IMG/VR virus record: IMGVR_UViG_3300034156_000107
From: a virus
Taxonomy: Duplodnaviria > Heunggongvirae > Uroviricota > Caudoviricetes
Reading direction: 5' to 3' (one strand)
Length of the DNA: 64,000 bases
This document shows, piece after piece, positions 16,703-60,863 of this stretch (its first letter is position 1; each line of letters opens with the position of its first letter). The translations under genes and the position numbers were made by a program. Under the pieces are notes generated by a model, which made no database searches, was not told the origin of the DNA, and saw only the letters and a list, made by a program, of their open reading frames with translations.

Positions 16703-16927
16703 ATGTGCAGTAAAACAGATGCTGATGGTTTTCTGCCTTGCCCATTTTGTGGTGGCACTGAAATTCACATGGAAACATGGAGCCGTCAACGAGGTGAGTG
16801 GCTGGGTAAAGTCACCAATGAATGCTGTGGTTACACGTTTATTGTGTTGAACGTGGTCGGTTCCACCAAGAAAGAAATGATTGAATTTTACAAAAGACAG
16901 TGGAATAAAAGACCAGAAAAAGCTTGA
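16703..16927 (+). CDS. Lar-family-like restriction-alleviation zinc-finger protein (candidate)
   Basis: LPCPFCGG...CCGY zinc knuckle and a C-terminal ...EFYKRQWNKRP resembling the Lar consensus CPFCG...AIEAWNRR. Own promoter gatataat and RBS agagggt. Confidence 0.5.
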   Translation: MCSKTDADGFLPCPFCGGTEIHMETWSRQRGEWLGKVTNECCGYTFIVLNVVGSTKKEMIEFYKRQWNKRPEKA

Positions 16928-16952
16928 TTTGTTGAGATGGATTTGGTAGAAT
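16925..16952 (+). promoter_or_regulatory. promoter (TTGATT-N16-TGGTAGAAT) driving the ncRNA locus
   Basis: ttgatttgttgagatggatTTGGTAGAAT sits directly upstream of about 480 nt with no ORF. Confidence 0.45.
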
Positions 16953-17253
16953 AGCCACATTGAAACAGAGTAAAGAATTCGGAGCCTGCGTAAAAGTGGG
17001 TTGGGTGGCAGCGGTGTCGCGGGCAAGCCACTAACGAGACATGAGAGAAATCTCTGTCTCACGGTAGAGAGGGGAATTAAAGTGTGGTTTGCTTTGATTA
17101 AAACGGCTGGGTGAGTCGGCTCCTTTCTGCTAACCTGATTAAATGTTACACACTAGTAGAGTGAAGAATTATGGCCCAAGAGGTTATGATTAAAACAGAT
17201 GGGTGATCTGGCTTCCTTTGCTAAACCAAATTTAAAAGTTCATACAGTAGTAG

Positions 17254-17399
17254 CTCAATGGATGTTTAAAGTAGGCCGCGACTTGCAAGGAGATTCTAGA
17301 CTCTTTTCTTGACGGTTTGGCCGATGATAAACTAGCTTTTCGACAAGCAGAGCGTGCCCACAAGGCAAGGCGTTGGTTCGATTCCAGCCTATTGTACCA
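17254..17399 (+). ncRNA. tRNA-like element with encoded CCA and a large internal insertion/degenerate anticodon arm
   Basis: 5' ACAGTAG pairs with 3' CTATTGT (6 WC pairs + 1 GU). T-arm is GTTGG-TTCGATT-CCAGC. Discriminator A, then CCA at 17397-17399. The 5' side has the D-like motif TAGCTCAATGG. About 75 extra nt sit between the D and T regions. Confidence 0.4.
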
Positions 17400-17408
17400 A
17401 CAACCGAA

Positions 17409-17441
17409 AACAACTTGTTGAAAGACAGGTTGTTTTTTTTT
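17409..17441 (+). terminator. intrinsic terminator
   Basis: caacttgttg-aaaga-caggttg followed by TTTTTTTTT. Confidence 0.65.
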
Positions 17442-17541
17442 GCCTAAAATATTTGAATAATCAGAAATTACTTCAAAAAACACTTTCTTTGATTGTTCAT
17501 ATTTGTTATAATAGACCTTCAATATTTGGAGATACCCGAAA

Positions 17542-17739
17542 ATGATGACTAATACGACTTCTCAAATCAAAGTGGTTAAAAACGAAGGTGACTTCAAGCG
17601 GGCAATGGATGCTGGCTTTGCCATCAACCTGTTCGAATGTTCGGAAACAGAAATGTGGCTTGTCTTGCCAATGGAAAAAGCTGACATGAAAATGCACGCT
17701 AAACATCACGGCTTCACTCCAGTCGCTGTTACTCAATAA
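17542..17739 (+). CDS. hypothetical protein
   Basis: Promoter tgttataat and RBS ggaga; 65 aa. Confidence 0.65.
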   Translation: MMTNTTSQIKVVKNEGDFKRAMDAGFAINLFECSETEMWLVLPMEKADMKMHAKHHGFTPVAVTQ

Positions 17740-35868: not shown

Positions 35869-35938
35869 CTGTTTGTAGTTCAGTTGGCAGAACTCCGTCG
35901 AAAAACGGTAGTCGTGGGTTCGAATCCCATCATACAGC
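35869..35938 (+). tRNA. tRNA-like element (canonical acceptor, D and T arms; truncated non-canonical anticodon arm)
   Basis: Acceptor CTGTTTG/CATACAG (6 bp + T.T). D-arm GTTC-AGTTGGCA-GAAC. T-arm GTGGG-TTCGAAT-CCCAT. Discriminator C. Only 20 nt sit between the D and T arms (4-bp stem CCGT/ACGG, 6-nt loop). No encoded CCA. Terminator at 35950. Confidence 0.5.
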
Positions 35939-35949
35939 CTTTATACACT

Positions 35950-57653: not shown

Positions 57654-58775
57654 ATGTCCAGCATCTTCCCGCGTATTGAAACCCTTGATGATATGCTTCC
57701 TCACATCAAAGACCGTGCCTATATTTCTGTTAATAAACAGGATAACGGTGCCAACATCGTTTGCTATAACATCAGCAACGGCGACTCTTTCAACACTCCG
57801 GTTGAAAAGGAAGCTCGCGGTATTACCTTTGACGACAACGGTAAAATCCTGTCGCGTCCATTGCACAAATTCTTCAACTTGGCAGAGCGTGCAGAAGTCC
57901 AACCAGCCGTTTTGGATTGGAACACGATGGTCGCCGGGTTTGATAAAATGGATGGCTCCATGATTACCACAGGGCTGTTCAACGGCGAATTTTTTGCTAA
58001 GTCCAAGAAGTCTTTCAAATCGGATGTGGCTGTTTCTGCAGAAAGTTTTGTGTCTCGTAACCAGAAATACTACGAGTTCACCAAATATTGCTCTCAGGCC
58101 CAACTGACCCCTATTTTTGAATTCACTTCGCCAAAACATCGTATCGTTTTGCGTTATGACGAAGACAACATGACACTTCTTCATGTTCGTCACAACATCA
58201 CAGGCGATTACTTAATGCCTGCTGACAAAGACCAACTGGCGTTGTTGTTTGATATTCCTGTTAACAAGCCACTGTTTGGTGAAGAATTTGATTTGGCTGC
58301 TTTATTGAAGTCGCTGAACACTGTTGAAGGGATTGAAGGCTACGTTATTCAGTTCGTTAACGGTAACATGATCAAAATCAAAACCAAATGGTATATGAAC
58401 CTCCATCATGCGGTTAGCTTTGTTCGTGAACGTGATATTGCTCGGTTGGTGGTTGAAGAAAAACTTGATGATTATATCGCTTATTTGTCGCTGAACTCGC
58501 CAACGGCTGATTTGAGTGAGATTTATCGAATCAATGACGCTATCAAAGCTTCGATTGAAGCGTTGTCGAAAGAAGTTGATGATATTGCTGCTGAATTCCA
58601 AGGTGTTGATGTGAAAACTGCAGCAATTCAGCTTAAAGGCCATAAACACTTTGGTTTTGTTATGGGTGCAATTCGTGGTCACAAAAACGACTACCTGTAT
58701 CACTACTCTAAAAACCATCTGGTGGATTGGTCGTTGGAACAAATTGAGCTTGGCGACTTGTCAGCTCCGGTTTAA
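57654..58775 (+). CDS. RNA ligase, T4 Rnl1 family (paralogue A)
   Basis: Nucleotidyltransferase motif I FDKMDGSM (KxDG), motif IV EGIEGYVIQF and motif V MIKIKTKWY. N-terminus YNISNG...ARGITF...PLHKFFNL parallels T4 Rnl1 YRIFSYNY...CRGIMF...PMEKFFNL. Promoter atttcgatataat. Confidence 0.8.
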   Translation: MSSIFPRIETLDDMLPHIKDRAYISVNKQDNGANIVCYNISNGDSFNTPVEKEARGITFDDNGKILSRPLHKFFNLAERAEVQPAVLDWNTMVAGFDKMDGSMITTGLFNGEFFAKSKKSFKSDVAVSAESFVSRNQKYYEFTKYCSQAQLTPIFEFTSPKHRIVLRYDEDNMTLLHVRHNITGDYLMPADKDQLALLFDIPVNKPLFGEEFDLAALLKSLNTVEGIEGYVIQFVNGNMIKIKTKWYMNLHHAVSFVRERDIARLVVEEKLDDYIAYLSLNSPTADLSEIYRINDAIKASIEALSKEVDDIAAEFQGVDVKTAAIQLKGHKHFGFVMGAIRGHKNDYLYHYSKNHLVDWSLEQIELGDLSAPV

Positions 58776-59685: not shown

Positions 59686-59741
59686 ATTAAAAATCAGTTT
59701 TTGATATAATCAATTCAGACAATTTAATCGTGGAGATTCAC

Positions 59742-60863
59742 ATGACTTATCAACAAGAACTGTATGCCCAACTGATGAACCTGTTGGTGACGAATCCGGG
59801 GTCGTTCAAATACCGTGATGAAACCTCGGCAGTAGACGGCGGGACTTACCGTGTCTTCAACTATGACATTCCAAAGCACTCCGAATTCAAACTTCCGGGT
59901 GCTAAGGATTGCCGTGGGGTCATGTTCTACATGGGCGGTGATGATCCAGTGCTGGTTGCATTGCCTATGCAGAAATTTTTCTCGCTCGGTGAAACCCCAG
60001 AGACTCAAAAGATCAAGCCAGAAGAAGCGGATCATGCTTACTTGAAGCCGGACGGTTCCTTGCTGACCAGCTATATCTCGCCGGTTAACAATACGCTTTA
60101 CTACAAGAGCAAAAAGAAGCCAACTTTTGCCGATTATGACCTTGTTGAGAAGTCTATCAGCCCTGAGTTGCACGCTGACATTGAGCGTCTGACCCGCACA
60201 GGTATTTCTGTTGACTTGGAATTGACCACGCCCAAAAACCGCGTGTTCATTGAATACACTGATTACGCTGTTCATATCCTAAAAGCCCGTGATATGAGCA
60301 CTGGTGCTTATGTTGATATTCGTTCGGCTGAATTCGCTGCCAAATACCCGGTTATTGCGGCCCATTTGGTGAAACGTATCCCTATCAATGAACTCAACGT
60401 CAATGACCCTGAGATTGAGGGTTATGTGGTTGAATTTGGCACTGACATGTATAAGGTGAAGACAATTCCTTACCTGAAAATGTCGGCAGTTGTCAACATT
60501 CAGGATCGGTCGAAGGAACGTCAGGTTATTTATGAAGCAACCCTTCACGAAATTCTGGATGAAATCCGTTCGTTGTATCACTACCGGACGCACAGCGACA
60601 ACTTCCCACTGGCTGAAATTCTGGCTCGCTTGGATGAAGTAGAAGACTATGCACGTAAAAGCTACCATTACCTTGTTCGCACGGTCGATAGCTTCCACAA
60701 TGAGCATAAAGGTCTGGAACGTGGCGATTACGCTCGTAAAGCCAAAGAAGTGGCTCCATTGCTTCTGTCGGTGTTGATGAGCAAGTTTTCGGGTGATGAG
60801 ATTGATTACAAACAAGCTGCTATCATGGTATTTGCTCGTAAACAAGTGCCTATTCCCGAGTAA
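59742..60863 (+). CDS. rnlA: RNA ligase, T4 Rnl1 family (paralogue B, closer to T4 Rnl1)
   Basis: TYRVFNYDIP...CRGVMFYMGGD...PMQKFFSLGE...YLKPDGSLLTSY...EGYVVEFGTDMYKVKT mirrors T4 Rnl1 TYRIFSYNYA...CRGIMFEMDGE...PMEKFFNLNE...LTKEDGSLVSTY...EGYVAVMKDGSHFKIKS. Promoter gatataat and RBS tggag. Confidence 0.9.
   Translation: MTYQQELYAQLMNLLVTNPGSFKYRDETSAVDGGTYRVFNYDIPKHSEFKLPGAKDCRGVMFYMGGDDPVLVALPMQKFFSLGETPETQKIKPEEADHAYLKPDGSLLTSYISPVNNTLYYKSKKKPTFADYDLVEKSISPELHADIERLTRTGISVDLELTTPKNRVFIEYTDYAVHILKARDMSTGAYVDIRSAEFAAKYPVIAAHLVKRIPINELNVNDPEIEGYVVEFGTDMYKVKTIPYLKMSAVVNIQDRSKERQVIYEATLHEILDEIRSLYHYRTHSDNFPLAEILARLDEVEDYARKSYHYLVRTVDSFHNEHKGLERGDYARKAKEVAPLLLSVLMSKFSGDEIDYKQAAIMVFARKQVPIPE

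Follow-up and report, generated by a model that had tools for sequence, protein, structure and literature searches.

A non-coding RNA locus in a phage-like genome joins a previously undescribed structured RNA family to a tRNA-derived RNA with a D-loop insertion

Introduction

Bacteria and phages have few large, highly conserved structured RNAs whose function is not known, and such RNAs have time and again opened up new biochemistry, as with ribozymes, riboswitches and RNA nanocages. Here we describe a non-coding RNA locus in the IMG/VR virus record IMGVR_UViG_3300034156_000107, a stretch of 64,000 nucleotides (nt) that is called the window throughout. The locus occupies the spacer between a Lar-like gene and the next gene. 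An earlier note, made from the sequence alone, had described this spacer as a promoter-to-terminator unit without an open reading frame (ORF), containing direct repeats, a hairpin with a GAAA loop and a tRNA-like 3' end, and had suggested that it encodes either a novel structured RNA of phages or a series of small processed RNAs. Both suggestions hold: a covariation-supported RNA family without a match in Rfam accounts for the 5' 270 nt, and the 3' 156 nt form a separate tRNA-derived RNA.

Results

A promoter and a terminator enclose a region without coding potential

The locus opens with a sigma-70-type promoter on the + strand (16924-16952), which a sequence scan resolves into a -35 box TTGATT (16924-16929), a 17-nt spacer and a -10 box TAGAAT (16947-16952) with a TG two bases upstream of it. 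The start of the transcript is predicted near A16957-A16959. At the other end lies an intrinsic terminator (17406-17445, + strand), made of a 14-pair stem (17406-17437) with a GAAA loop and a T-run behind it. Both the promoter and the strong terminator of the earlier note are therefore found. Orthologous loci keep the -10 box with the downstream CATTGAAAC, and they keep the terminator as well. The two signals enclose about 440 nt of predicted RNA, and the folding energy of the whole transcript (z = -3.5) was equalled by none of 100 shuffled sequences.

The lack of an ORF, also claimed before, is borne out. The longest + strand ORF that lies wholly within the transcribed region has 37 amino acids (aa), and the ORFs up to this length are either broken by 1-2-nt indels among orthologues or located within a dispensable module, module 2 below. 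The lone longer ORF (63 aa, 17354-17545, + strand) begins in the tRNA-like element, crosses the terminator and the next promoter and enters the next gene. JGI gene calls on identical DNA place no gene in the gap. Close orthologues of the locus are set apart from one another by 1-2-nt indels and by a 93-nt block. With its promoter and terminator motifs and its lack of coding potential, the locus is, with high confidence, a real, conserved and self-contained non-coding RNA gene, which is predicted to be transcribed.

The sequence AUUGAAAC at the transcript start was considered as a CRISPR RNA handle and rejected, because cATTGAA is also found 3' of the -10 box at three other promoter-like sites in the window; it is for this reason probably a promoter or start-site feature. 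The four promoter-like sites (13679, 16648, 16947 and 40828, all on the + strand) have in common TAtAAT, 5-7 nt, and (C/T)ATTGAA around the predicted start, a pattern that suggests one promoter class for the RNA locus and the neighbouring small genes.

The 5' part belongs to a covariation-supported RNA family

Relatives of the locus were collected with a repeat-derived pattern in IMG/VR, by exact-protein look-ups of the flanking genes, and by scans of one metagenome and one genome; they are given here as loci numbered with L. Two covariance models were used, R1 for the junction module and R2 for the 5' domain, together with alignments of 18 of the 19 distinct junction modules (A2) and of 17 5'-domain sequences (A3). 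The family is defined by an R2 match and then an R1 match, in this order and on one strand, and the window has both. Once the R1 and R2 family matches are set aside, the next best score in the window is 12.8 bits. Among the first loci fetched, true members scored at least 56 bits, and chance pattern matches in unrelated loci at most 19 bits; among loci added later, the lone modules of L188 and L178 scored 47.5 and 45.9 bits, and L190 scored 25.4 bits. The pattern AGCGGTGN{1,4}CGGGCRAGC was useless alone as a search key, since it gave more than 120 mostly chance matches in GC-rich DNA. One such chance match, in L019 (- strand), lies in a CRISPR-like array with repeats ending in GGGGATTAAAAC and has no R1 match at E up to 0.1.

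The general plan of the family is a 5' domain, then a hairpin in which a U is bulged, then one or two junction modules of about 70 nt. In the window this part extends over approximately 16971-17233 and contains two modules. The 5' domain (16971-17041, + strand) is the sole R2 match in the window (86.2 bits, E 2e-20). It begins with GGAG (16981-84) and continues with helix Pa (16984-89 paired with 16996-17001), the joiner UGG, helix Pb (17004-09 paired with 17027-32) and the joiner AACGA. Helix Pb encloses the purine-rich loop AGCGGUGUCGCGGGCAA (17010-26), with the family sequence AGCGGUGUCGCGGGCRA, which is invariant across the family as AGCGGUG..CGGGCRA. In the 17 sequences of A3, all 204 of the 204 cells of Pa and Pb are paired and both sides have changed in 11 of the 12 pairs, a result as good as which was obtained in none of 500 shuffles. 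A 3-bp mini-hairpin within the Pb loop (GCG-GUGU-CGC) was tried and rejected: it is lost in L181, L171 and the u3 units, and the loop was therefore modelled as unpaired.

Between Pb and the first junction module stands hairpin Pc (17036-17060, + strand), seen in the sequence and in minimum free energy (MFE) folds, with the strands GAGACA-U-GAGA and UCUCUGUCUC, a GAAA loop (17047-50) and a bulged U at 17042. This is the GAAA hairpin of the earlier note; the hairpin is real, but it lies three bases upstream of the interval 17039-17063 that had been given for it. Most family members have such a hairpin, in which one U bulges out six pairs above the base, and in the orthologues of the window clade its loop is GAAA or GCAA; it is not present in the units L002A and L002B. 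An unconstrained MFE fold of 16959-17243 gives Pa, Pb, the Pc hairpin and both junction modules. In total, about 45 junction and loop nucleotides are invariant in the family.

A further helix, P0, may close the whole unit. Its 5' strand would be GAAUUCGG (16975-16982, + strand) and its partner either CCAAAUUU (17226-17233) or CCUGAUU (17134-17140). In register, 81% of cells pair between GAAUUCGG and CC.AAUUU, as against 24-66% when the strands are slid, and one set of orthologues has a compensatory change (GAAUACGG/CCCUAUUC). As the helix is AU-rich, the support that these figures lend is weak, and we regard P0 as plausible and tentative.

The direct repeats are parts of two three-way-junction modules

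Junction module 1 (17063-17131, + strand) matches R1 at 17064-17134 with 76 bits (E 2e-21). It is built from P1 (17063-74/17120-31), P2 (17075-84/17090-99), the joiner AAAA (17100-03) and P3 (17104-08/17114-18) with the loop GGGUG. Its paralogue, module 2 (17154-17223, + strand), matches R1 at 17156-17226 with 66.7 bits (E 2e-18) and repeats the plan, with P1 at 17154-66/17212-23, P2 at 17167-76/17182-91, AAAA at 17192-95 and P3 at 17196-200/17206-10. The consensus module of about 70 nt has a P1 of 7-12 bp, a P2 of about 10 bp with AUU...GAU at its base, the joiner UAAAA, and a P3 of 5 bp with the loop GGGUG followed by G(Y)(U); GAUUAAAAC and the UGGGUGA loop are invariant. Each of the 19 distinct module sequences, folded alone, gives the same three-way junction. 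In alignment A2, 84% of cells are paired as compared to at most 55% when the strands are slid, both sides have changed in 19 of the 27 pairs, and none of these covariation measures was reached by any of 500 shuffles. The P3 loop (GGGUG, GGGCG or AGGUG) shows no covariation with any other conserved segment, and thus no pseudoknot is proposed.

The two 40-nt direct repeats of the earlier note, at 17096-17135 and 17188-17227, have 34 identical positions over 42 alignment columns, and their pattern GATTAAAACNNNTGGGTGANNNGGCT occurs exactly twice in the 64 kb, where 0.01 occurrences are expected. The repeats are thus real, but their extent had been underestimated: because both modules fold as complete junctions, each repeat represents the 3' half to two-thirds of a paralogous three-way-junction module. 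Both ACAC/ATAC-AGTAGTAG segments that had been reported behind the repeats were also found, and the second of them is the acceptor 5' strand and D-arm start of the tRNA-like element. A 93-nt block with module 2 is precisely missing from the orthologues L147, L159-L163 and L184, and tandem modules are also present in an unrelated paralogue of the L001u1 type. Two other readings of this part were rejected. ToxI-like repeats of a type III toxin-antitoxin system do not fit, as the repeats are two 70-nt modules 92 nt apart, orthologues have one module and the 65-aa protein encoded downstream has no Pfam match, and a boxA-like antitermination signal (GCUCUU) does not fit, as it lies within a covarying helix and is not conserved in sequence.

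The 3' part is derived from a tRNA with a large insertion in the D-loop

The 3' 156 nt (17244-17399, + strand) are recognised as a tRNA-derived RNA from orthologue changes and from the result of ARAGORN after removal of an insert. The 7-bp acceptor stem, ACAGUAG (17244-50) paired with CUAUUGU (17389-95), is followed by U8 and A9, and position -1 is a U. The D-stem GCUC (17253-56) pairs with GAGC (17350-53), an anticodon-like arm occupies 17355-67, and the T-arm (17372-88) has a 5-bp T-stem and a UUCGAUU loop. The discriminator base and the CCA are encoded (ACCA, 17396-99). The tRNA-like 3' end with CCA seen in the earlier note is therefore present, with T-arm, acceptor 3' strand and ACCA in direct succession. 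Acceptor pairs are kept through A1>G with U72 in L145, U69>C with G4 in L147, L161 and L184, and A6>G with U67 in L184, and T-stem pairing is kept through one orthologue change.

The departure from a tRNA lies in an 86-nt insertion (17263-17348, + strand) between GG and position 21 of the D-loop. After A9 the sequence reads GCUC AAUGGA and, 86 nt further, A GAGC G UGCC, so that the halves flanking the insert make up an ordinary D-arm (UAGCUCAAUGGA...AGAGCGUGCCC) like that of the tRNA-CAU in L171 (UAGCUCAGUUGGUAGAGCGUGCCC). According to RNAalifold, the insert forms a long irregular hairpin at about 17264-17333 with the core CAAGGAGA/UUUUCUUG, and it also contains a small hairpin GCUU-UUCGAC-AAGC (17336-49) that in orthologues is one base shorter per strand (GCU/AGC). 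Seven orthologues keep the insert core (17275-17322) almost unchanged, with one substitution in L184, and the anticodon loop varies. No intron or ribozyme family of Rfam matches the insert. A repeated palindromic mobile element was rejected, as the window holds one copy of the insert and IMG/VR no exact match to it.

When the 83-86-nt insert was deleted in silico, ARAGORN at default settings called L147, L159, L161 and L184 as tRNA-Ile(AAU), and it called none of these four with the insert in place. The native window element is called neither by ARAGORN nor by the Rfam tRNA model, and the window copy stays uncalled even after deletion of the insert because its anticodon loop, CACAA (17359-63), has 5 nt. 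There is no 7-nt anticodon loop with U33 in this copy; the orthologue loops are CUAAUAA or CUAAUCG, and the anticodon loop of L159/L160 is able to close to 5 nt. The window copy is thus non-decoding with its 5-nt loop, and we take its tRNA ancestry, read from pairing and orthologue comparison, as established at the level of sequence.

Other unusual tRNA-type genes were seen in the window and its relatives. The sole tRNA called in the window (35869-35939, + strand) has an anticodon loop of 6 nt (CGAAAA), which ARAGORN reads as a 2-base 'anticodon', and no encoded CCA; shortened anticodon loops are thus present in both tRNA-type genes of the window. On related contigs, two further odd tRNA-type genes (L013 465-535 and L002 7866-7941) have one 8-nt anticodon loop and one 4-base anticodon between them. 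A 125-nt RNA in L013 (202-326) has an acceptor with G3:U70, a T-arm and ACCA without a cloverleaf in between, and it matches the Rfam model of transfer-messenger RNA (tmRNA) weakly (18.6 bits), in the tRNA-like domain only.

The family is found beside tRNAs in giant metagenomic contigs

About 11 contig lineages carry the family, all of them from metagenomes. Most have a length between 100 kb and 1.9 Mb, and each has the family within or close to a tRNA island. Whole-locus orthologues were found in L145, L146, L150, L147, L151, L159-L163, L164 (partial) and L184. The spacer between the Lar-like gene and the next gene is identical to that of the window in L146 and L150, and differs by one base (A17244>G) in L145. 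Other copies of the 5' part are present on a 437-kb contig (L002, L175, L177 and L026), in L001 and L173, in L013, L016 and L020, and in L170, L171, L181 and L183, and lone junction modules in L026, L178 and L188. None of the family members was found in a cultured phage. Among the 50,697 phage records of INPHARED, neither the locus, nor the 8 kb that surround it, nor the family cores have a DNA match. A literature search on the invariant strings and on structured RNAs of huge or jumbo phages turned up nothing relevant.

In every locus the unit starts 15-25 nt past a strong promoter, and what comes after it varies. The unit is followed by the tRNA-derived RNA in the window clade, by a different RNA of about 300-450 nt in L175 and L181, by a terminator in L001u3, L013u3 and L183, and by the next promoter in L001u1. 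In L002 two units are followed by a directly abutting tRNA-Cys, and in L171 a tRNA-CAU directly abuts the 3' end of the unit. L001u3, L013u3, L020u3 and L183 are free-standing units with their own promoter and terminator. As for the lone modules, that of L188 stands ahead of a tRNA array and that of L178 in a 3' untranslated region (UTR). Altogether, units are beside or fused with tRNA or tRNA-like genes in L002, L013, L171, L188 and the window.

Several of these loci have peculiarities of their own. A Nextera adapter (CTGTCTCTTATACACATCT...) at the contig end in L183 (1017-1035) marks the 3' end of this contig as an assembly artefact. The RNAs behind the units of L175 (590-900) and L181 (about 1870-2200, - strand) have the common motifs GUGGAGCGAUGG ... 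UGACCUU.GAAGCGAUGAC; that of L175 ends at a terminator, neither has an Rfam match, and they are possibly a second new structured RNA. The module of L188 comes from DJWL01000096.1, a contig of the metagenome-assembled genome 'Flavobacteriaceae bacterium UBA6231', where it has its own promoter inside a dense tRNA array and adjoins a class I aminoacyl-tRNA-synthetase-like gene with a HIGH motif. By its appearance, this contig is a large phage that was binned with a bacterial genome.

The 64-kb window itself is phage-like, with promoters and terminators arranged in a phage-like manner, but almost all of its ORFs are ORFans. Its best protein link is an Rnl1-type RNA ligase with 42% identity to the ligase of a 344-kb Ralstonia jumbo phage. 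Two genes for T4 Rnl1-type RNA ligases (Pfam RNA_lig_T4_1, PHROG 562) are close together at 57654-58775 and 59730-60863 (+ strand), and in L153, on a related 498-kb contig, such a ligase gene stands directly after the Lar-like gene, in place of the RNA locus. DNA matching or orthologous to the window is present on two contigs of 1.86 and 1.92 Mb that were assembled independently, namely JGI 3300031134 Ga0308158_10000001 (1,859,102 bp, with L173 and L184) and JGI 3300034157 Ga0370506_000001 (1,917,244 bp, with L146); related contigs have 437-498 kb. The two largest contigs may be cellular genomes that contain very large prophage regions, assembly chimeras, or a single giant genome of a virus-like kind.

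The locus does not match known RNA families

A scan of 16850-17500 with Rfam 15 at E up to 10, a check that the earlier note had proposed, gave terminator-like small RNA noise only. RNase P, 6S RNA, group I and II introns, small ribozymes, riboswitches, Y RNA, GOLLD and ROOL were rejected in this way, with no match at E up to 10. At gathering thresholds, the only Rfam 15 match in the window is the tRNA at 35869-35939. A riboswitch or another cis-regulatory leader of an ORF is also rejected, since the terminator precedes the next gene, this gene has its own promoter, and no riboswitch model matches.

Like tmRNA, to which the earlier note had compared the locus with doubt, the window locus spans a few hundred nucleotides and has a T-arm, an acceptor 3' strand and ACCA at its 3' end. 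The resemblance goes no further, as neither ARAGORN nor the Rfam tmRNA models detect a tmRNA and the acceptor pairs with an internal segment. Unlike in tmRNA, the acceptor is closed by the segment 17244-17250, 156 nt from the 3' end, rather than by the transcript's 5' end; the pair 3:70 is A-U instead of G3:U70; and there is no tag ORF or resume frame, to which the 1-2-nt indels of orthologues add further evidence. In agreement with the note, no tag frame with a stop upstream of the T-arm was seen. The segment ACGGUAG (17062-68) could serve as an acceptor 5' strand with G3:U70, and a 7-mer capable of such pairing is expected, by our estimate, about 0.9 times by chance in 440 nt. This segment was rejected, since module 1 uses its GGUAG in the covarying P1 and orthologue changes instead support ACAGUAG (17244-50). 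Membership in the tmRNA family hence fails on every testable defining feature.

The closest known systems in kind, taken as analogies, are GOLLD and ROOL, together with the species 1 RNA of phage T4. GOLLD and ROOL are phage and prophage RNAs found near tRNA islands, and GOLLD linkers sometimes hold tRNAs (PMC12286853, PMC5737381). The family described here is likewise structured, non-coding, often near tRNA islands and multi-junction with covariation support. However, the GOLLD and ROOL models match neither the window nor the related loci at E up to 10, and the helices and motifs differ. Our family is modular, with one or two junction modules, its unit of about 170-270 nt is small beside ROOL (about 580 nt on average) and GOLLD (often more than 800 nt), and unlike those RNAs it has so far been found only in giant metagenomic contigs.

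The T4 RNAs rnaC (species 1) and rnaD (species 2) are stable small RNAs in the tRNA cluster, annotated as such in the T4 record, and the earlier note had drawn a parallel to them. The parallel is apt in kind, a stable tRNA-like RNA in a tRNA cluster, but there is no homology. The 139-nt rnaC has a canonical T-arm and an acceptor-like 3' strand and is about twice the size of a tRNA, as is the element at 17244-17399; a local alignment, however, shares only the 11-nt T-loop motif, neither R1 nor R2 has a match in the T4 tRNA region, and homology was rejected. The window element is a tRNA(AAU) cloverleaf with a D-loop insert. With canonical phage tRNAs it has in common the acceptor stem, D-stem, T-arm, variable loop and encoded CCA, and it differs from them in the 86-nt D-loop insert, in the 5-nt anticodon loop of the window copy, and in that its native form is unrecognised by tRNA finders.

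Discussion

In this study, we found that a spacer of about 440 nt in a phage-like genome holds two RNAs of different kind. We are highly confident that the first, at the 5' side, belongs to a previously undescribed RNA family, given the covariation of its helices. As the 3' 156 nt are a separate tRNA-derived RNA, the predicted transcript can be regarded as a composite precursor. We consider it reasonably probable that this precursor, consisting of a particle of the new family and a tRNA(AAU)-derived RNA, is processed and that the particle acts in trans. In this scheme, the 5' portion (about 16959-17243) would fold into a multi-helix particle with Pa, Pb, Pc, the two junctions and, tentatively, P0. 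Host RNase P would then cut at U17243|A17244, and 3' trimming would halt at the encoded CCA, releasing two stable RNAs, a particle of about 285 nt and a tRNA-like RNA of 156 nt. The proposed cut has a parallel within the family: because canonical tRNAs directly abut the units of L171 and L002, RNase P would have to define the 3' end of the unit there, and by extension we infer the cut in the window. As a folded RNA acting in trans, the particle might bind a protein, an RNA or a ligand, in connection with the phage tRNA island, and the tRNA-like piece would serve at least as a handle for processing and stability. Our confidence in the processing into two RNAs is moderate, as judged from the arrangement of the sequence, and any biochemical function of the particle is put forward with low confidence.

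Several points weigh against this proposal. The processing sites and the action in trans are inferences from sequence. No partner protein, ligand, target or conserved neighbour gene was identified, and the unit always comes directly after a promoter with variable cargo downstream, an arrangement that fits a cis-acting leader too. The closing helix P0 and the mini-hairpin in the Pb loop are weakly supported. Finally, the giant metagenomic contigs that hold the members are related and form a rather narrow set, so that the 'invariance' may in part reflect limited divergence.

A serious rival is indeed that the unit is a cis-acting 5' leader which aids the downstream RNA, for example as a guide for folding or processing, by protection of its 5' end, or by modification of the polymerase, and we give this a modest chance. 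It would account for the position 15-25 nt past a promoter in every locus, for the exchange of cargo (tRNA-like RNA, tRNA-Cys, tRNA-CAU and the other RNAs of about 300-450 nt), and for the lone junction module ahead of the tRNA array in L188. It does not account for the units without any cargo, in which a terminator or the next promoter comes directly after the unit (L001u3, L013u3, L183 and L001u1), or for the lone module in a 3' UTR (L178). The boxA-like GCUCUU varies in sequence and forms part of a covarying helix. Some 45 invariant nucleotides in junctions and loops exceed the needs of a simple processing or stability signal; because of these and of the free-standing copies, we favour a function in trans of the unit itself over a simple leader. 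With regard to the 3' element, it could be argued that it is a tRNA-Ile(AAU) gene with an intervening sequence in the D-loop, excised and rejoined, possibly by the phage Rnl1-type ligases. The four ARAGORN calls after deletion of the insert, the normal D-arm that its flanks make up and the two ligase genes in the window speak for this idea. Nevertheless, we consider it quite improbable. To our knowledge no D-loop intron or splicing route is known from bacteria or their phages, and the insert matches no ribozyme or intron family. Decoding is not conserved, as the loop of the window copy has 5 nt and that of L159/L160 can close to 5 nt, and the insert core is better conserved than the rest of the element, which suggests that the insert is functional in the mature RNA.

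Two simpler explanations can be weighed against the same data. The truncated anticodon loop of the window copy and the presence or absence of module 2 among close relatives might be expected of decaying debris, a dead tRNA gene with duplicated junk, but every helix is kept by compensatory changes, even between distant paralogues and genomes, and promoter and terminator are conserved too. In addition, genomes hold several copies with a promoter for each, and the core of the insert hardly varies; debris is thus very improbable. A divergent tmRNA or a small-protein gene is hardly credible. The length of about 440 nt, the T-arm and ACCA at the 3' end, the possible G3:U70 pairing of ACGGUAG and a Shine-Dalgarno-like AAGGAG (17288-93) could be cited for it. 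Yet the tmRNA searches were negative and no tag frame precedes the T-arm, GGUAG belongs to a covarying P1 and orthologue changes identify 17244-50 as the acceptor partner, the ORFs of at most 37 aa are broken by indels or lie in the dispensable module 2, and AAGGAG is paired in a predicted hairpin and has no suitably spaced start codon. As far as sequence analysis allows, this explanation is refuted.

Beyond the composite precursor, we can also speculate on more specific roles, which as a set appear unlikely. The unit might be a new class of catalytic or tRNA-handling RNA of giant phages, which, in cis or in trans, would mature, chaperone, shield or sequester phage tRNAs through their elbows or CCA ends, or an RNA-only assembly similar to ROOL or GOLLD with linked tRNA or tRNA-like cargo, and the tRNA part might be the first tRNA of a bacterial virus with a D-loop intervening sequence or a functional extra arm. 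All these readings are compatible with the invariance of the junction nucleotides, with the linkage to tRNAs, obligatory in several loci, and with the two nearby Rnl1-type ligases.

In summary, the locus represents a compact and modular family with strong covariation, which is present in several copies per giant phage-like genome (0.1-1.9 Mb) and is fused to tRNAs or tRNA-derived RNAs. Small and tractable as it is, the family lends itself to the question of why enigmatic structured RNAs are so often found in phage tRNA islands, among them also GOLLD, ROOL and the T4 species 1 and 2 RNAs. The tRNA(AAU)-derived RNA, whose D-loop arm of 86 nt is conserved and whose anticodon loop changes fast, is a further case in which a tRNA scaffold has been put to a use beyond decoding. 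Its main interest is as a compact new member of this unexplained class of structured RNAs in phage tRNA islands.

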